Of a stretch of 64,000 bases of DNA, positions 2,264 to 57,898 are shown one piece after another. The position numbers and the translations under genes are program-made. Below the pieces are notes generated by a model, which did no database searches, was not told where the DNA came from, and worked only from the letters and a program-made list of their open reading frames with translations. This DNA is from a virus. The stretch lies in the IMG/VR virus record IMGVR_UViG_3300025648_000013; one strand, given 5' to 3'. Numbering within the stretch: position 1 is the first letter of the stretch; each line of letters starts with the position of its first letter.

Positions 2264-2509
2264 ATGTATACTATATATTCAAAGCCAGGTTGCTCAAACT
2301 GTACAGCAGCCATAAATCTTCTCACATCAAAGTCCATTCCATTCGTTGAAATGGATATTACAGACGAAGAGACAAAGAATCGTCTACTAACTGAAGTGCC
2401 ACATGCGCGCACAGTACCACAGATTTTTTATAACGAAACATACATTGGAGGGTATAATGAACTCAATGAACGAATCAAAAACGAATCTACCAACGTCCTA
2501 TTTGGATAG
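2264..2509 (+). CDS. Glutaredoxin (NrdC-like)
   Basis: YSKPGCSNC (CxxC), RTVPQIF, IGGY. Confidence 0.9.
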   Translation: MYTIYSKPGCSNCTAAINLLTSKSIPFVEMDITDEETKNRLLTEVPHARTVPQIFYNETYIGGYNELNERIKNESTNVLFG

Positions 2510-2741
2510 TCTAAAACATTTCGAGTGTAAGGTCAAGTTTCAGAAGAAAGATGGTTCAGAAAGGACCATGCTTTGTACCTTGCGCCCAGATGCTCTACCG
2601 ATCCAGACTGACCTAGAAGAGCAGATCCAAAATCGTAAGATCAATGCTGATGTTGTATCAGTATGGGATCTAGAGAACAATGGCTGGCGATCATTCCGCA
2701 AAGATTCTGTTGTTGATTTCAGTGTAGGGGGTTTTGTATAA
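2457..2741 (+). CDS. Conserved T4-like SH3/WYL_2-type small protein
   Basis: VKFQKKDGSERTMLCTL...VWDLENNGWRSFR; GGAGG RBS before ATG 2457. Confidence 0.7.
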   Translation: MNSMNESKTNLPTSYLDSLKHFECKVKFQKKDGSERTMLCTLRPDALPIQTDLEEQIQNRKINADVVSVWDLENNGWRSFRKDSVVDFSVGGFV

Positions 2742-3556
2742 TGAAAACTTTTAAAGGCTTCTTGGAAGAAGCTCCCATAACAATTAATAATACACCAATG
2801 CACGGGTCACATTCTAAACCACCTATCGTAATCAATGTGCCTCCTATGCATGGTGATCATGCGAATGTGAAAGAAATTTCAGAAGCAGGTCATGGAGGAT
2901 TTGGAGATTTTAGACCTACAATTGATCCTCCAGACTTTGACAAAGAATATCCAAATCAAAATTCTCATCTCGGAGAAACTCATAAAGATGTTGATGGTGC
3001 ATTGGAGAAAGAGTATTCAAATATTCACCAGAACAATAGTTCTTTTTCCAATGCGCTTAAATCATACACAAAAGATTCAACTACAATAAACAATCACCTT
3101 ACACACAACGAAAGTCTACTACATAAATATTTACATCCTATAACGCACTCCAGGATAAGTGCTTTGGATTCTCAGTTGACTTCTCCAGACACAAAATTGA
3201 AACATGATTTACACGTATATCATGGAACATCTGCTTTTAATCCAGATCAAGAAGCATCAAAGCATCCAGACCGAAAGATCAAAATGCCGATGTTTTTATC
3301 AACATCTATTAATCCAAAAATTGCACATAATTTTGCGGCATCTGGTGATGGACACAAAGATGGTACTAAAAGACATATATTGCATATTCACTTAAAAAAG
3401 GGTCAGCAGGGTGGAGTGTATATAGGAAGAAAAAGTAAATTCTCCAATAATGAATATGAGCAACTTTTACCAAGAGATACAACTCTAAAGGTTCATACAT
3501 TGCCTACTGTACTAAGTGATGGTACACATATATGGCATGCTCATTTAGCAGATTAG
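2741..3556 (+). CDS. ADP-ribosyltransferase (Alt/VIP2-like) with capsid-targeting-like N-terminus
   Basis: VYHG, FLSTS and EYEQLLPR (ExE) motifs; N-terminus MKTFKGFLEE. Confidence 0.75.
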   Translation: MKTFKGFLEEAPITINNTPMHGSHSKPPIVINVPPMHGDHANVKEISEAGHGGFGDFRPTIDPPDFDKEYPNQNSHLGETHKDVDGALEKEYSNIHQNNSSFSNALKSYTKDSTTINNHLTHNESLLHKYLHPITHSRISALDSQLTSPDTKLKHDLHVYHGTSAFNPDQEASKHPDRKIKMPMFLSTSINPKIAHNFAASGDGHKDGTKRHILHIHLKKGQQGGVYIGRKSKFSNNEYEQLLPRDTTLKVHTLPTVLSDGTHIWHAHLAD

Positions 3557-3567
3557 GAACATAGAAT

Positions 3568-3747
3568 ATGAACGAACTAACACGCTGGGAATATATCCGA
3601 GCATTTATTGCTAAGTGGATTGTGATCAACATTGCAGCACGTATTAGCAGTCTCGCAGTGGCGTCACTGATGATAGAAACATATGAACTTTATCATCAAA
3701 AACTAACAGAAGAAATGGAAGCGGTGGAACCAAATGAGCAATCATGA
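3568..3747 (+). CDS. Small hypothetical protein (59 aa)
   Basis: AGGA RBS; fills the gap and overlaps the next start. Confidence 0.55.
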   Translation: MNELTRWEYIRAFIAKWIVINIAARISSLAVASLMIETYELYHQKLTEEMEAVEPNEQS

Positions 3748-4693
3748 CCTAATGGAACGCAATGAGTTAAACAAGAACTCAAAGGGTGGTACAGAACTAC
3801 TACAAGAACGTCTATATGCGGGTGGTGTTCCTCGTGAACTTCTAGAAGACACACAGATTGTTTTCTCACGCGCTCGTGAACTAGACGAAACCAAGACGAA
3901 GATTTACTACTGCCATGATCTACCAGAAGATCCAGAGTCGTCGCGACTTTCTGATCCAATGTATCGTAAGAAGTTTGATAAGTTTGTTTTCGTTTCAAAC
4001 TGGCAGATGGAACAATACAACAACGTTCGTGGTGTACCATATAGCGATTCTGTTGTCATTAAAAACTCTATTGAACCTATCGACACTATAGCAAAGACTA
4101 TTGATGATAAAAAGATCCGATTGATCTACACACCTACTCCACATCGTGGTCTAGATATTCTGGTACCAGTCTTCATCAAGCTAGCCGAGAACGATCCCAA
4201 CATCGTTCTGGATGTTTATTCATCATTCAAACTTTATGGATGGGAACAGCGCGATCAACAGTATGAAGAGTTGTTTGAAATCTGTCGCCAGCATCCACAG
4301 ATTAACTATCACGGCTCTGTAAGCAACGAAGATTTGCGCAACGCATTGTTGAACGCAGACATCTTTGCATATCCTTCAATCTGGAAAGAAACATCCTGTC
4401 TTTGTTTGATCGAAGCCATGTCTGCTGGTCTACTCTGCATTCATCCTAATCTAGCAGCACTACCAGAAACTTCTATGGGCTTGACATGGATGTATCAGTG
4501 GAGCGAAGATAAGAATCATCATGCAAACTCATTCTATCAGGTTCTTTCACAGGGTATCAACGTTATGCGTAATCAAAGAGACTTGATTGCACAGGATCTT
4601 TATCTACAGAAAATCCAAGCAGATCGTACATACAACTGGAACACTAAAGCAATGGAATGGTCAGGCCTTCTAGAATCTCTAAAAAATAAATAA
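3734..4693 (+). CDS. Glycosyltransferase (GT-B, family 4-like)
   Basis: GGTE, FVFVSNWQ, RGLDIL, YPSIWKETSCLCLIEAMSAG. Confidence 0.85.
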   Translation: MSNHDLMERNELNKNSKGGTELLQERLYAGGVPRELLEDTQIVFSRARELDETKTKIYYCHDLPEDPESSRLSDPMYRKKFDKFVFVSNWQMEQYNNVRGVPYSDSVVIKNSIEPIDTIAKTIDDKKIRLIYTPTPHRGLDILVPVFIKLAENDPNIVLDVYSSFKLYGWEQRDQQYEELFEICRQHPQINYHGSVSNEDLRNALLNADIFAYPSIWKETSCLCLIEAMSAGLLCIHPNLAALPETSMGLTWMYQWSEDKNHHANSFYQVLSQGINVMRNQRDLIAQDLYLQKIQADRTYNWNTKAMEWSGLLESLKNK

Positions 4694-13761: not shown

Positions 13762-14316
13762 GTGAATATCTTTTATATCGATGAGTCTGCACAGCAATGC
13801 GCTGAGTGGATGGTTGATAAACATTGCGTCAAGATGATCGTTGAGACGGCACAACTGTTGTCTACTGCACATCGCATTCTTGACGGTGATGAGTATGTTG
13901 GTGAATCTAAAACTGGTCGTAAAGCAAAGCGTTGGCGATTGAATGATGGTCGTCAAGATGTTTTGTATTCTGCTAGTCATATCAATCACCCTTCTGCTGT
14001 GTGGGTGCGACAGTCGGTAGAAAACTATAACTGGCTTGTAGATCATCTGTTTGCTCTTGGCGATGAGTACACTTATCGTTACGGCAAGAAACATTCGACA
14101 ATCGAAAAGCTTGGTTATCAGTTGCAGTCTCCACCTTACAAGTTGAAAGAATGGGACTGGACTCCAATGCCTTGCTGTATGCCAGACGAATACAAAGTGT
14201 CAGATGATCCTGTATTGAACTATCGAAACTATTATGTCAATGCGAAGGCATATCTGAAAAGTTATAAGAATCGTCAACCACCGCCATGGTGGCCAGACGA
14301 TTCTGGTGTCTTTTAA
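13762..14316 (+). CDS. Pyrimidine-dimer DNA glycosylase / endonuclease V-like family protein
   Basis: MNIFY...DKHCVKMIVETAQLLSTAH...HINHPS..WVR...EYTYRYGKKH. Confidence 0.75.
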   Translation: MNIFYIDESAQQCAEWMVDKHCVKMIVETAQLLSTAHRILDGDEYVGESKTGRKAKRWRLNDGRQDVLYSASHINHPSAVWVRQSVENYNWLVDHLFALGDEYTYRYGKKHSTIEKLGYQLQSPPYKLKEWDWTPMPCCMPDEYKVSDDPVLNYRNYYVNAKAYLKSYKNRQPPPWWPDDSGVF

Positions 14317-15049
14317 AATTACCAGGGTCGTACATTTTACCACAGTGCTTACATTCTATTTTTGCTGGTTTGGTAAATGATGTAACTTTACGTCCCTTTC
14401 TACTCCTTAGAATTTTTAATTCTTTGGCACGCTCTTCTCCGTGAATTTCTTCATACGTTTTCCCTTTGAGATATTCTTTCGAAACGCCAGTGGTACGTTT
14501 TCGTATTTGTTCTTTTAGCACTTGCGCCTTTTCCTCGCCGTAAATCTCCTCATATCTCTTACCCTGTCTTTTGGAACGCAGAGCGTCTTTCGTAATTTCT
14601 GTATGATGCTTTCCAAGCATTCCTCTCGGATGAGTTTTATCTGGACTTTTATTCCACGACATTAACGAGTTGCTGTCCAATTCTTCTTTCATTTTATCAC
14701 TCCGGCGCTGTCGTCTATTTTTGGTCCAGTATTTTTTCGCGCCTTCTTGCATCTTTTGTTTTTGTACGGTGGATCTTGGAGAACTATTACCCTCTCCACC
14801 CTCGCATACATTATGCAATATTCCGTTTGGATCTATATTTTTCCTACCATACCACCTAATATATCGTCTTTCAAGAGCACATGCTCCTACATTACTAAGG
14901 CGTGTTTCGAGAAATACAATTTTAGATGTGTCTTTAGGAGTAGATATTCTACCATGATCTATAAATGCCCTTGTGCCTTTACCTTTACCGATATAGTATG
15001 GTGTGTTAGCCGAAGATCGTAAATAGGCATATACGTAATAAATAAACAT
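14237..15049 (-). mobile_element. Free-standing GIY-YIG homing endonuclease with NUMOD3-type repeats
   Basis: YYVYAY...PYYIGKGKGTRA...ERRYIRWYGR...N..EGGEG; GKHHTE; own late promoter; antisense overlap with the upstream gene end. Confidence 0.85.
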
Positions 15050-15108
15050 TGCTGGTGCTCCTTAATAGCAGTAGTGCGGTTGGACATGCCACTGTCGCGA
15101 ACCGTATC
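15050..15108 (-). promoter_or_regulatory. Structured endonuclease leader, copy 1
   Basis: Two-stem element plus an SD-containing hairpin; covaries with 56828-56892. Confidence 0.6.
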
Positions 15109-15115
15109 TATTTAT

Positions 15116-15172
15116 ATGAAAACACATCTTCACAAGTGGACTAAGCGTGATGCACCGGAATGGATAGCATAA
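15116..15172 (+). pseudogene. Displaced original C-terminus of the 13762 glycosylase-like gene
   Basis: KTHLHKWTKRDAPEWIA* aligns with the current tail KAYLKSYKNRQPPPWW. Confidence 0.6.
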
Positions 15173-15195
15173 ATACTCCTAAAAAGGAGTATACT

Positions 15196-16113
15196 ATGGC
15201 ACAGTTAAGTGCAGCCGAACTAAGAAAATATAGTTGGCGCCCAGAAGTCTTTATCAAAAAGATTCAAGACAAATCGCCATTTGAAATATCTGGGGGTAAG
15301 AAGGTAACTCTTCTTGCCCCTGCTTCTGTTATTACTACTTTACGTTCAGGATCTAACTCAGAACTAAATGCACTTAGGATTGCGGATATCGAAGGAAATC
15401 TATACAAACTAAGTGATTTTGTAAAAAATAAAGAGTTTGGTGGTAAAGGCGAAGGATCTGGTATGATCAAAGAAGATCGTGCTTTGGCTTCACTTAGAGA
15501 GCAGATAAATAAAGCAAAGACTGATATAGGCAAAGCAACGATACAAATCAAAATAGGAAACACAACCTATGATGTATTTGATGTTGTCTCTACACCAGGA
15601 ACACCAAAGTCAGACTTTCATCTGATAGACAACGACGGTAAAGAAGTTGCATGGATATCACATAAAGACGGCTCAAGGGCAAAAGACTTTCAGCAATGGG
15701 GCGGCGTATCACAAAGCAAAGAGCCGACGATATACTCCGATAGAGAAACACAAGCCCTTATTAAGGACATCAAAAACAAATATCCTAATGGATTGCCCAA
15801 TGTCACAACAGTCGCAAGAAAGATCAAAGAGAAGCGTTTAAAGATGTTGTCTGTATATGGCAACGAATATGGTAAAAGATATAGCCGTCAAAATGTCACT
15901 TTGATGTTACAGGGTGATATCAAGCTATCAAAATCTGGTTCATATTATATCATAACTGCTACTCATACACATTTGAATGGTGAAGATATGACAAATGATT
16001 ATGAACCTGTGTTTATGGCAATATATAAAGGCGATAGAAGTGACTTTGGTATTAGAGGAACTCGCGTCGTTATTGCTCCTCTTGGATGCAGAAAGATTAC
16101 AGAGTTTATATAA
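15196..16113 (+). CDS. Hypothetical protein, possible PD-(D/E)XK fold
   Basis: GTPKSDF...ISHK motif; AAGGAG RBS. Confidence 0.6.
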   Translation: MAQLSAAELRKYSWRPEVFIKKIQDKSPFEISGGKKVTLLAPASVITTLRSGSNSELNALRIADIEGNLYKLSDFVKNKEFGGKGEGSGMIKEDRALASLREQINKAKTDIGKATIQIKIGNTTYDVFDVVSTPGTPKSDFHLIDNDGKEVAWISHKDGSRAKDFQQWGGVSQSKEPTIYSDRETQALIKDIKNKYPNGLPNVTTVARKIKEKRLKMLSVYGNEYGKRYSRQNVTLMLQGDIKLSKSGSYYIITATHTHLNGEDMTNDYEPVFMAIYKGDRSDFGIRGTRVVIAPLGCRKITEFI

Positions 16114-47843: not shown

Positions 47844-47874
47844 TTGACATTTTATCACGAATCGTATATAAATA
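47844..47874 (+). promoter_or_regulatory. Dual early/late promoter of tmRNA with spacer GANTC
   Basis: TTGACA-17-TATAAA, where the -10 is also TATAAATA; GAATC 47859-47863. Confidence 0.75.
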
Positions 47875-47877
47875 AGT

Positions 47878-48212
47878 TATCAGTTGTTTGAACGCGGACT
47901 GAAAGATGTAAAGACGGGAGTTCGATTCTCCCCATCTCCACCATCTACAATGCTAGTGGAATATGACTGTGATCTGCCATTGAAAGAGATGGCCAAACAG
48001 ATACAGATTAGTATTGTAGTTGATGGGGATGACCTGGGATCGATTTGCATTGGATAGGAAAGTCTAGACTGATTCGCTGGCCGAGTGGCTAAAACTGTAA
48101 ATGTCAACCTAGTTGCACATAATGATAATGATTTTGCCGCGATGAAAATCGCCGCCTGATCTAAACATCATTCGGAGTTTTGGTGCTGTACTCTGTCAAA
48201 TAAACAGCACCA
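47878..48212 (+). ncRNA. ssrA: Circularly permuted (two-piece) tmRNA
   Basis: Acceptor piece with T arm and CATCTCC-A-CCA (ends 47943); hairpin spacer; coding piece from GGGGATG (48025, G3.U70 pair); tag frame ...AHNDNDFAAMKIAA* (stop 48157-48159). Confidence 0.9.
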
Positions 48213-48923
48213 CCGTATCTTGCTTTATATCTGCAAGCATTACCGCACAACTTTTTGTTTGGATTTCTTGTCTCAATCCGAGTTTTACATACAGGACAAT
48301 CAAATATCCTATAAGGTCTAACATTCGGATTATTTTTCCAGTATTCCTTTTTCAGGTCTGACATTAACTTCTTTGTTTGCTCTGTATGTGGTTTTACGCC
48401 TTTTTGTCCCCTGTTCCAAGCTGGATGAGACTTGCCTTTATTAGAACTACCATTACCTCCAGAAGAATGTTTCTTCTGATTGTAATATCTAACAGTTTTG
48501 TTGTAAATATTGGGTGTCCAATAAAGTTGTTCGTCTTTGATCATGTTTAGCCAACGCTGTTCTGCTTCACGCAAATCTTTGTTGTCTCCTTTTAAAGATT
48601 CTGCGTGTTCTTTTCTAATATAATCATACATTGAAGAATTGAAATATCTAGTTCCATGTTTTTTGGTATGCATTCTAAATGAGTTATATGCAAACAACAT
48701 TTTCTGTCTGTGTATACTTCCTCGTTCACACATTCTAATCAGAAGTAAATGACATATATAATGTTCTTTTGGTGTCAACAAACCCAAATTAGCATTAGAG
48801 TTGCTTCCATTGAATGGACTACACTTTGGAATTATGTGGTGCTTCTCAAAATATCCTTGACTTTTGTTTAGCATTGTTTATAATAGAAAAGTAACATTTT
48901 GAGTATTTGTTGGTTAAAAACAT
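48161..48923 (-). pseudogene. HNH homing endonuclease split by a frameshift near 48860
   Basis: AAGGAG RBS plus MFLTNKYSKCYFSIINNAK in one frame; GYFEKHHIIPK...N...LTPKEHYICHLLL in the next frame. Confidence 0.75.
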
Positions 48924-55507: not shown

Positions 55508-56200
55508 TTATGATAGATAAAAGTCAGTGTAACTTATAGTCATGTCTACTTTGACGTATTGATCTGTTGCACTCCACGATAAATCGATAGGTGACATTGA
55601 TCTAAGAAAACATTTATTGAAGTTGTATGTAATCAACTCCTTGGCACCAGCAGTATAAACAATAACTTTTGTTGTAAAAACAATATCATCTTTATACGCA
55701 ACTTCATAAGGAGATGCTGTATTTGAGAATAATCCGCTGCCACGACTTACATTCAGATCGGTGTTGGCCATAGAATATGATTTATTAAATGCTGCTGTCC
55801 CTGAAAGTGTGTTAACAAGATCAACGATACCTATTGGCCGACTTTCTGGAGCAATGATAGTCACACGTAATGGCTGAAATACTGGTCGATAAGGAACATC
55901 TTCTAATGGACCATATCCATAACGTCTGATCTTTTCGGTGTCTAGAGAAACATCTGGAAGTTCAACTCTTTCTGCCAAGAACTTATACACCTCATTGTCT
56001 AATTTAGAACCAGTAAAAACGACTCTATATAAAGTCGATCTTAAAGTTCCTCCTGCGCCAGATAGCTCTGTTTTGAACCTTTCGATAGAAAACTCTTGAG
56101 GATCTACAGGCGGTGGCGCGCGGCGGGCAGTTACCACAATATCCGGATCTACGGGCGAGTCTGGACCTGTTGGTGTATTAGTAGGTGGATTAGATGCCAT
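55508..56200 (-). CDS. Tail tube-like / gp54-like baseplate-tube protein
   Basis: ELP...YG....PY...F; I.LSW...V..SY; position between gp2 and gp26. Confidence 0.6.
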   Translation of the reverse strand: MASNPPTNTPTGPDSPVDPDIVVTARRAPPPVDPQEFSIERFKTELSGAGGTLRSTLYRVVFTGSKLDNEVYKFLAERVELPDVSLDTEKIRRYGYGPLEDVPYRPVFQPLRVTIIAPESRPIGIVDLVNTLSGTAAFNKSYSMANTDLNVSRGSGLFSNTASPYEVAYKDDIVFTTKVIVYTAGAKELITYNFNKCFLRSMSPIDLSWSATDQYVKVDMTISYTDFYLS

Positions 56201-56802
56201 TATCTTGAACCTCTATTGATAATCTGCTTAGAATCTTTCCAGACTTGATCTTTGCTTGCTTTCGCGAAGTTCTCAACAGGTAGAAACAATGCGATGTCCC
56301 ATTCTGCTGGAACAATATAGATAAACTTCGATCTTAGATGACCTGTTAGATACTGCTTGATGCAAGGCTTGATGTACTTATTCGTAGCCGCAGCATTCAA
56401 TATGTTATAACTGATATTCAACTTAGCGTTATCACTCAGATTTGCATCATTAACATACGGATAGAGCATGTCCATCAACTTCGCTCTCAGAACTGGTGGT
56501 AGATAGTGTAGATTGATGCCGATGAAGCCGTCTGGAGTCTTCTTCAGAGGGAAAATCAATGGGAACATATCGTAGTAGGGCAAAGTCTTTTTGTACTTTG
56601 GATCGTATTGGAACATGTACATACGACCAACCTGAATCTGATTGGTGATTGCAGTCTTGTTCGCTAGTAGTCGCGTCTCGGTAATACTGGAAAGCTTCTT
56701 GGCGGTGTTTCGAAACCAGTTACGTGCCTCTGTTGTTCGCCCAGGAACTTGCCCCTGTCGAATGCCTTGTGCTAATGTCTGATCGAATAAACCTATTGCG
56801 AT
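56200..56802 (-). CDS. 2: DNA end protector (T4 gp2); start codon uncertain (ATC 56802 or ATG 56862)
   Basis: YDPKYK.TLPYYD.FPL, GINLHYLPP..RA, PCIK.YL..H, W..ALFLP. Confidence 0.88.
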   Translation of the reverse strand: MAIGLFDQTLAQGIRQGQVPGRTTEARNWFRNTAKKLSSITETRLLANKTAITNQIQVGRMYMFQYDPKYKKTLPYYDMFPLIFPLKKTPDGFIGINLHYLPPVLRAKLMDMLYPYVNDANLSDNAKLNISYNILNAAATNKYIKPCIKQYLTGHLRSKFIYIVPAEWDIALFLPVENFAKASKDQVWKDSKQIINRGSR

Positions 56803-56827
56803 GTCGAATATCCTAAAACTATAAATA

Positions 56828-56892
56828 ATAATGTAGATCGCGGTGCCCGCCAAGAAACCCATCTACTCTAACGCTTACAAGGAGCATCAGCT
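56828..56892 (+). promoter_or_regulatory. Structured endonuclease leader, copy 2
   Basis: GTAGAT-CGC-GGT..ACC-C-ATCTAC, GCT..AAGG-AGC, ATCAGC. Confidence 0.6.
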
Positions 56893-57831
56893 ATGTCTAT
56901 TTATACATCTGATATGGAATGTCGAATATGTTTTCGAGATTTCAAGTCTACTTTATCTCTAGCTAGACACATATCACAAAAACACAATATACCATCAGAG
57001 ACATATTATCTTACTTACATCGGCGACAACAAATGTGCGCTCTGTTCGTCTGCTACCAAGTTCAAACGACTAGGAGTTGGATTTTCATCCACATGTGGAC
57101 ACAAATGCGGCGCAAAGTTTTTTAGAGAAAATCTAAAAAATGATGATATACGCTATGATAAGTTTATCGATAAAGTCAAAACAAATCAAACTAAAATATG
57201 GAAAGAACGTTATGCGGACGGCAGTATTGTCGAACTAAAAGAAAAGATGAGAGAAAGCAATACTGCCTCTCATCTTTCTCCGCAAGAACGAAAAGAGCAA
57301 TACAGTAGATACTACACCTGTGATGAAGAAACTATCGCTAGACTAAATAAAACAGGCGCAGAACAATGTATTAATAATATAACAACAGGAAAAGCTGGAT
57401 ACGTATCCATGTCAAAAGGTAAGTTCACTCCCAAAAATCCAAGTAAGTATATGGGAGATCCCACAAACATAATATACAGAAGTTCTTGGGAACTACACTT
57501 CTTTATGTATTGTGACAAGCATCCAGAGATATCAGGATGGGCATCAGAAGAAATGACAATACCTTATGTCTCTCCTATAGACGGTAGATATCACCGATAC
57601 TTTCCAGACGTACTAATAAAGAAAAAAGACGGCAAAGTCATATTGGTTGAAATCAAACCATATACGCAAACACAGGAACCAAAAAGACCTAAAACACAAA
57701 CAAAGCGATACATTGAAGAAGTAAAGACGTATGTTGTTAACCAAGCCAAATGGAAAGCAGCGAAAGAACACGCGGATGACAAAGGATGGGAGTTTGTTGT
57801 GATGACGGAAAGAGAACTTTACTCAAAATAG
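56893..57831 (+). CDS. 4: C2H2 zinc-finger / endonuclease-type N-terminal region fused to head completion nuclease (T4 gp4, from ~57409)
   Basis: CRIC...HISQKH, CALC, CGHKC; then KGKF.PKNP.KY.GD...IYRSSWE...W.SEE..IPY...HRYFPD...EIKP...NQAKW. Confidence 0.85.
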   Translation: MSIYTSDMECRICFRDFKSTLSLARHISQKHNIPSETYYLTYIGDNKCALCSSATKFKRLGVGFSSTCGHKCGAKFFRENLKNDDIRYDKFIDKVKTNQTKIWKERYADGSIVELKEKMRESNTASHLSPQERKEQYSRYYTCDEETIARLNKTGAEQCINNITTGKAGYVSMSKGKFTPKNPSKYMGDPTNIIYRSSWELHFFMYCDKHPEISGWASEEMTIPYVSPIDGRYHRYFPDVLIKKKDGKVILVEIKPYTQTQEPKRPKTQTKRYIEEVKTYVVNQAKWKAAKEHADDKGWEFVVMTERELYSK

Positions 57832-57898
57832 AGAAGATGAACTTGCCTTTCATTTTTTCTCTATAAATAGTTTGTGCATCGTATTTATAGGGAACGAA

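Follow-up and report, generated by a model that had tools for sequence, protein, structure and literature searches.

Large phages have homing endonucleases as their main selfish elements, and control of nuclease expression is known only from a few T-even cases. Elsewhere among selfish elements, the RNA-OUT/RNA-IN pair of IS10/Tn10 uses convergent promoters and a short folded antisense RNA directed against the 5' end and translation start of the transposase mRNA. The T-even hairpins, described for I-TevI, I-TevII, I-TevIII, segB, mobE of Aeh1, and gene e, contain a promoter, so that late transcripts lose the inhibitory arm, and they cover the ribosome-binding site (PMC3014915, PMC2988022). A single case from Aeromonas phage 25, seg43(25), has a stable hairpin just upstream of its ribosome-binding site, which the hairpin does not sequester (PMC2988022). 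PeSL cassettes join an early promoter to a terminator stem-loop and are not tied to nuclease genes (PMC2839356, PMC4122927). For cyanophage S-PM2, the summary of Millard et al. 2010 given in PMC2984593 describes CfrI, an antisense RNA of ~225 nt that links a homing endonuclease gene to psbA.

Here we describe a portable cassette of ~90 bases that stands at the head of more than 100 selfish nuclease genes in uncultured T4-like phages. Two copies lie in the window, the whole 64,000-nt stretch of DNA analyzed, which is that of a T4-like myovirus: gp2, gp3, gp4, and baseplate genes were identified, and the late-promoter motif TATAAATA occurs 15 times against 3.4 expected. The initial annotation had described two structured leaders, and both were found exactly at the positions and with the architecture that it gave (Table 1). 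On the minus strand, hairpin P1 of copy 1 has outer and inner stems of 5 and 4 bp, set apart by a CGC bulge on the 5' side and a C bulge on the 3' side, and a loop of 6 nt; it is followed by CTA, AAGGAG, CCAGC, and the ATG at 15049-15047. On the plus strand, P1 of copy 2 shows the same two bulges between stems of 6 bp (outer) and 3 bp (inner), and its loop measures 12 nt; it is followed by TCTAAC, AAGGAGC, ATCAGC, and the ATG at 56893. Read on the other strand, P1' of copy 1 (+) has a 6-bp outer helix with a terminal G·U, the conserved G and GCG bulges, and an inner helix, and the loop of its P2' is the complement of the nuclease gene's ribosome-binding site. In copy 2 (-), the arms of the P2' helix are the complements of CAGC... 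and ...UCUAAC, and the loop again is the complement of the ribosome-binding site. Taken alone, the two window copies are weak evidence. Single-sequence folding of either strand of either copy did not go beyond shuffles (z -1.3 to +0.4), and a generic hairpin scan found that the bare hairpin architecture arises by chance several times in the window.

Table 1. Features of the two cassettes and adjoining genes, in window coordinates. P1 is the hairpin on the nuclease-gene strand; P1' and P2' are read on the opposite strand.
Feature	Positions	Strand	Remarks
Copy 1 gene, Seg-like putative homing endonuclease	14237-15049	-	270 aa
Copy 1 reversed late-promoter-like octamer AATAAATA	15037-15044	+	In codons 2-5 of the nuclease ORF; GCUG 6 nt downstream
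Copy 1 predicted antisense RNA	15051-15113	+	Covariance model R1, 59.0 bits, E 1.3e-12 (rough, from a shortened model calibration)
Copy 1 hairpin P2', 5' hairpin of the predicted antisense RNA	15051-15075	+	Begins GCUG
Copy 1 antisense-strand hairpin P1'	15076-15105	+	
Copy 1 gene-strand hairpin P1	15077-15104	-	Complement of P1'
Copy 1 promoter spacer			4 nt to the 5-bp stem; 3 nt counting the sixth pair
Copy 1 gene-strand late promoter TATAAATA	15109-15116	-	
Neighbor of copy 1	15196-16113	+	Own near-consensus late promoter CATAAATA at 15168-15175
Gene 2, DNA end protector (PHROG 429)	56200-56862	-	First ~14 codons encoded by the cassette's antisense side
Copy 2 gene-strand late promoter TATAAATA	56820-56827	+	5-nt spacer, then P1
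Copy 2 predicted antisense RNA, also predicted gene 2 leader	56825-56891	-	R1, 65.5 bits, E 3.3e-14 (rough, same calibration)
Copy 2 hairpin, P1 on + and P1' on -	56833-56866		
Copy 2 hairpin P2'	56867-56891	-	8-bp helix including G·U pairs
Copy 2 gene, gp4-type head-completion nuclease	56893-57831	+	312 aa; TnsA-like N domain, PHROG 218
Copy 2 reversed promoter, exact TATAAATA	56898-56905	-	In codons 2-5 of the gp4-type ORF; GCUG 6 nt downstream

The first clue from outside the window was a Seg-like homologue in Pseudoalteromonas phage vB_Psh_XG4, headed by the same bulged hairpin, though its outer stem differs. IMG/VR was searched by two pattern scans, which gave at least 120 loci each and together, with chance matches removed, at least about 103 distinct true homologues on viral contigs, a cassette total that is a lower bound; because copies were ascertained by patterns, some invariant positions are fixed by the search itself. 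In an alignment of 91 sequences, 92.9% of cells are paired, against 77.3% in shuffles, and the covariation score of 0.494 (0.182 when shuffled) was reached in none of 500 shuffles; slid controls gave 0.055-0.123. RNAalifold found compensatory changes at 8 of the 11 P1 pairs. Since MAFFT misaligned P2, RNAalifold missed that helix, and its pairs were counted instead from conserved-motif anchors in 107 copies, where pairs 4-8 covary. The comparative evidence for a conserved, covarying RNA element is decisive, and on this point the initial annotation is supported.

A covariance model and a comparison with Rfam were among the checks that this annotation had named. Model R1, built from the 91-sequence alignment, recovered two sites only in the window (65.5 and 59.0 bits), the next best scoring 11.5. 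Rfam 15 contains no match to the cassette at gathering score in the window, nor any with E <= 1 at the cassettes of six cassette-bearing loci, and its description was not found in full-text literature searches; megablast against the phage collection returned no match. R1 matches one site in XG4. It gave no cassette match in Stenotrophomonas phage Marzo, in five cyanophages other than S-PM2 that carry related Seg-like genes, or beside 40 homologues of the copy 1 neighbor gene, whose contigs are too diverged for defining an empty site. Some of these homologues (L220, L221, L224-L227, and L231) span ~1184 nt (match 3001-4184) against ~915, which suggests an insertion of ~270 nt within the longer ones.

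On the gene strand, the elements follow in the order late promoter (TAAATA core), spacer, P1, UCUA(A/U), P2, RYCAGC, start codon, and TATTTAT. About a third of the unbiased set has an exact TATAAATA as gene-strand promoter, and the spacer behind it is 5 nt long and A-rich with a T at its end. P1 consists of a variable 6-bp outer helix, an invariant U-CGCG...CC-A junction, and an inner helix of 3-6 bp; P2 encloses the purine-rich ribosome-binding site. TAAATA stands 5 nt from P1 in 69 of 107 copies, and the structure therefore lies wholly 3' of the late promoter and is no T4 bypass hairpin, a point on which the initial annotation was right. Both hairpins are downstream of the promoter rather than holding it inside a 5' arm, and the ribosome-binding site sits in the loop of a marginal, A·C-mismatched P2 rather than being sequestered. 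At the other end, CAGC and TAYTTAY are 5 nt apart in 68 of 107 copies, and in a variant cassette that places CAGC downstream of the ATG the distance to the heptamer is still 5 nt. The heptamer occurs in all three reading frames (offsets from the start codon of 5, 3, 4, 12, and 14), and most cassette-headed proteins begin M-x-I-Y whatever their enzyme family, HNH and TnsA-like included. The constraint thus falls on nucleotides, not on the peptide.

The cassette is common to at least three nuclease superfamilies, namely GIY-YIG, HNH, and gp4-type (TnsA-like), so that the earlier suggestion of an element traveling with endonuclease genes is upheld. Among 96 ORFs scanned behind it, 29 carry NUMOD3, 11 match GIY-YIG or SegE, 14 hits fall to HNH families, and 3 are TnsA-like. 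The initial annotation had taken both window genes to be of endonuclease type. This probably holds for copy 1, a Seg-like putative homing endonuclease gene, but the copy 2 gene encodes a gp4-type head-completion nuclease, not a classical homing endonuclease. The copy 1 protein combines a putative GIY-YIG-type domain at its N terminus with a C2H2-like finger at its C terminus. Pfam GIY-YIG models gave no match to it; a profile of its 15-member family reached GIY-YIG proteins in PDB with E 0.002 over the motif region, and NUMOD3 is present in close relatives. The family alignment shows Y-x-Y and YIG, then R, E, and N, without variation, which is consistent with a GIY-YIG core, and these residues probably correspond to the GIY-YIG catalytic residues. 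The copy 2 protein has a zinc-finger N-terminal extension of ~170 aa. In a close relative, L060 (4037-4597, -), the same cassette precedes the same gp4 core in a protein of 187 aa against 312, with 99% identity over the aligned part; this protein is without most of the zinc-finger extension, through an in-frame deletion after about residue 23. In Marzo (L001), a second tblastn piece at 2501-3003, unannotated and upstream of gp4, matches the extension and may be a missed or frameshifted ORF.

That one cassette, first codons included, heads GIY-YIG, HNH, and TnsA-like genes could also be the mark of a PeSL-like DNA module, in which recombination between copies moves nuclease genes and the RNA has no function; PeSL cassettes have themselves been proposed to mediate modular shuffling in T4-type phages (PMC2839356, PMC4122927). 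Recombination homology, however, predicts neither compensatory changes nor strand-specific wobbles, and the helices are most variable where homology would be needed. We consider such a purely DNA-level module very improbable.

The fold under selection belongs to the opposite strand, not to that of the nuclease gene. Among 77 copies taken with no rule on pairing, the outer helix of P1 has, on the gene strand, 438 Watson-Crick pairs, 22 A·C, no G·U, and 2 others, and the same 22 A·C are G·U on the opposite strand. P2 behaves alike across 107 copies. All 107 have A·C at gene-strand pair 3 and G·U opposite (partly fixed by the scan pattern), while 17 copies at pair 4 and 39 at pair 5 have A·C on the gene strand, with no G·U there, and G·U on the other. 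Identical segments fold at a mean of -17.45 kcal/mol on the opposite strand versus -12.17 on the gene strand, the opposite strand being better in 99 of 107 (p 2e-17); for the P2 region alone the values are -6.87 and -2.55 kcal/mol. In the window, the copy 1 segment folds at -19.1 kcal/mol on the opposite strand (+) versus -12.9, and that of copy 2 at -18.3 (-) versus -11.6. CTA and YCAGC, which had been noted as invariant, are indeed conserved, but they are the two halves of an 8-bp helix that closes, through G·U, on the opposite strand only. Given the strand-specific G·U pairs and the better folding of the opposite strand, the selected fold is the reverse complement of the nuclease leader, and the opposite-strand RNA is very probably the structure under selection. 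Control by antisense calls for a conserved, stably folded RNA on the antisense strand; the wobble asymmetry, the 99 better-folding segments of 107, and the covariation (0.494 vs 0.182) describe such an RNA.

The initial annotation had instead read the element as a conserved cis-regulatory RNA in a structured leader, riboswitch-like or protein-binding. On such a reading, which extends to a stabilizer of the 5' terminus, the element would control translation or decay of the nuclease mRNA. In most copies the gene strand, too, folds into P1, with a mean of -8.35 kcal/mol and a start at the predicted +1, but the wobbles in its outer helix all belong to the opposite strand (0 G·U vs 22 A·C on the gene strand), so the fold is not primarily there. 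Likewise, the ribosome-binding site does lie within the P2 loop, yet on the mRNA P2 is marginal, with one to three A·C mismatches and -2.55 kcal/mol. The invariant bulges suggest a binding partner; against this, the element has no Rfam match, nothing pointing to a riboswitch was found, and the presence of the same leader on unrelated enzymes makes autoregulation by the encoded protein unlikely. We therefore hold a cis-acting mRNA leader to be improbable.

TATTTAT is the reverse complement of ATAAATA and hence a reversed late-promoter motif, a feature absent from the initial annotation. Both strands carry late-promoter motifs at a conserved 5-nt spacing. Across 103 copies, the core of the reversed promoter is an exact TAAATA in 70, TAAGTA in 16, and nothing recognizable in 17. 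A reversed promoter defined as the full 8-mer was rejected, as the eighth base is unconserved and conservation is confined to the 6-7-mer core. In the diverged XG4 cassette the reversed promoter is not clear; this and the copies without an exact TAAATA core count against an antisense reading. A sigma-70 scan gave no match at copy 1 and a single one, below chance, at copy 2. T4 late promoters occupy positions -13 to -6. The conserved 5-nt spacers fit this placement and so predict that gene-strand transcripts start at the first G of P1 and opposite-strand transcripts at the G of GCUG; the two predicted transcripts would overlap over the entire 5' UTR, about 57 nt.

Behind P1' the predicted RNA reads ACUUUU, which comes from the A-rich spacer of the gene-strand promoter; the spacer of the other promoter is not A-rich. 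The tail averages 5.2 U in 9 nt, commonly ACUUUUAUU, a richness largely forced by the complement of the gene-strand promoter, and P1' has a mean energy of -10.1 kcal/mol. A simple terminator scan flagged P1' in neither window copy. P1' and its U tail plausibly form a leaky intrinsic terminator.

The complementarity of the two motifs also invites comparison with the T4-type mask against read-through, a principle established for T4 gene e and I-TevI (PMC3014915). Here UAUAAAU would pair with AUUUAUA (codons 2-5) in transcripts arriving from upstream, and only late-promoter transcripts would be translated. RNAfold draws this long-range helix for copy 1, but at a fold z of 0.02, and does not predict it for copy 2; the helix would be built of A-U pairs only, closing a loop of ~75 nt, and it leaves the opposite-strand fold unexplained. 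We give this mask very little credence. Pairing between promoter and heptamer as such was rejected for want of compensatory changes: 16 of 16 TACTTAT variants face an unchanged TAAATA, and the lone TAAGTA promoter faces TATTTAT.

We propose that convergent late promoters give rise to a structured cis-antisense RNA of ~65 nt that restrains the nuclease, a reading to which we assign roughly even chances. Two late promoters would face each other ~57 bp apart in each ~90-bp cassette. The gene-strand promoter would start the nuclease mRNA at the first base of P1, and the reversed promoter, within codons 2-5 of the ORF, would start the opposite-strand RNA at GCUG. Its 5' hairpin P2', a stable 8-bp helix, would expose a loop sequence complementary to the nuclease ribosome-binding site; the bulged 3' hairpin P1' and the U-rich tail would then bring about leaky termination and yield the ~65-nt RNA. 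This RNA would have full complementarity to the stretch of nuclease mRNA that runs from the 5' end up to the start codon; by construction, the match takes in the ribosome-binding site and start of the target. The nuclease would most likely be held down by RNA pairing, by head-on transcriptional interference, or by both, and the G·U/A·C asymmetry would keep the antisense RNA stable while leaving the mRNA's ribosome-binding site open, its helices weakened by A·C. The analysis shows the architecture, its covariation, the strand on which it folds, how the promoter motifs are spaced, and the link to three nuclease superfamilies; activity of both promoters, termination at P1', and repression by the RNA are inferred.

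The fully invariant bulges (G and GCG) go beyond simple antisense pairing and count against the antisense reading. Inspection by eye led us to drop a K-turn, a T-arm, and an RNase III site as readings of the bulge. The P2' region is near-identical between copies, so the RNA of one cassette could act in trans on other nuclease mRNAs. A tentative extension, which we regard as possible though doubtful, is that the cassettes make up a family-wide antisense regulator, with the same RNA-OUT-like small RNA for every homing-type nuclease, action in trans, and the bulged P1' as a protein dock. If true, this would amount to a genome-wide policing of selfish nucleases, with the P1' bulge docking a shared phage or host protein.

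The neighborhood of the cassettes bears on what else the opposite-strand RNA might do. Among 95 scorable cassettes, with orientation called from raw ORFs, the upstream neighbor is divergent in 63 (start within about 20-100 nt) and co-oriented in 32. The cassette could accordingly be a bidirectional promoter and leader for the neighbor that compensates the polar effect of a counter-inserted nuclease gene, any effect on the nuclease being a by-product; invading endonucleases can displace or add promoters of their neighbors (T4 mobile-DNA review, PMC2988022). Copy 2 fits this well. Its reversed TATAAATA, P2', P1', and the gene 2 start form one unit, an arrangement kept in L060 and L078, and the antisense transcript, predicted to be the only obvious late transcript of gene 2, must pass P1' to express that gene. 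The gene 2 start codon (56862-56860) sits in the 5' arm and bulge of P1'. With this start inside P1' and ~14 codons taken from the cassette, the cassette can double as a two-way promoter for essential genes. P2' moreover begins at nucleotide 2 of the predicted transcript, the place of a 5' stabilizing hairpin. P1' with its U tail, however, resembles a stop more than a leader.

Copy 1 speaks against a role as neighbor leader. Its nuclease gene is inserted against two plus-strand genes, of which the one beyond the cassette has a late promoter of its own and a hairpin that would silence read-through. This hairpin (15173-15192, +) has 8 bp, sequesters AGGAG and partly the AUG, and folds at -11.6 kcal/mol (z -4.5); CATAAATA overlaps its 5' arm, which makes it a textbook T4-type bypass hairpin (15166-15200, +). 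With its ribosome-binding site held in this hairpin, read-through from the cassette would not be translated. At its other end, the copy 1 gene (-) overlaps a convergent DenV-like pyrimidine-dimer glycosylase gene (13762-14316, +) by 80 nt (14237-14316). Across the family, the reversed heptamer is kept with co-oriented (97% of 29) and divergent (87% of 62) upstream genes, and the U tail is likewise kept equally in both groups. Heptamer and fold are thus retained as well in 29 co-oriented cassettes that have nothing to drive. We consider it rather unlikely that the cassette is primarily a leader for its neighbor. The equal retention in both orientations speaks for a separate role of the opposite-strand RNA, and under the antisense reading read-through may still serve a neighbor, as in copy 2, where gene 2 would owe its promoter, leader, and first codons to it.

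Facing late-promoter motifs occur a second time, with no hairpins between them, at 57862-57889, where TATAAATA, 12 nt, and TATTTATA directly precede the baseplate tail-tube-cap gene. The window also encodes a permuted (two-piece) tmRNA at 47851-48250 (+; Rfam RF04321, 74.9 bits), for which ARAGORN gives the tag peptide AHNDNDFAAMKIAA. It is probably a late transcript, since TATAAATA at 47867-47874 lies just upstream of the RF04321 match. Locus L007 has the same tmRNA beside a cassette-headed nuclease gene.

The cassette would be both a new RNA family and a new regulatory design, in which late promoters face each other and a fold is made strand-specific by G·U/A·C asymmetry. It is one abundant element with boundaries readable from sequence, found in at least about 100 copies across three nuclease superfamilies, and it offers a direct handle on the swapping of nuclease genes behind a common head. 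Copy 2 further illustrates how such a cassette may have come to serve gp4 and gp2, both essential genes, as promoter and leader.

Among described systems, the T-even hairpins share with the cassette the joining of a T4-type late promoter to an RNA hairpin ahead of a homing endonuclease gene; the purpose, presumed for the cassette, is limited nuclease expression. In the cassette, by contrast, the promoter is followed by both hairpins, a loop contains the ribosome-binding site, and selection acts on the fold of the other strand. The hairpin of seg43(25), a free-standing Seg-type gene compared by description only, likewise comes after a late-promoter region and before the ribosome-binding site, which it leaves free; the second hairpin, the reversed promoter, and the family-wide covariation of the cassette are not reported for it. 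PeSL cassettes resemble ours as composite promoter/stem-loop modules that recur throughout T4-type genomes on the flanks of variable genes and probably help modular exchange. They differ in that our cassette has two facing promoters of the late TATAAATA type where PeSL has an early sigma-70-type promoter, two covarying hairpins, and strict nuclease linkage. CfrI, as summarized in PMC2984593, is also an antisense RNA overlapping a homing endonuclease gene in a T4-like phage, as is predicted here, and it is not a repeated 5'-end cassette. With IS10 the cassette has no sequence relation; it has two hairpins, phage late promoters, and a nuclease, and its repression is presumed. By analogy, however, its logic is most like that of IS10 RNA-OUT, in which the gene of a selfish element encodes a harmful enzyme that is kept low.
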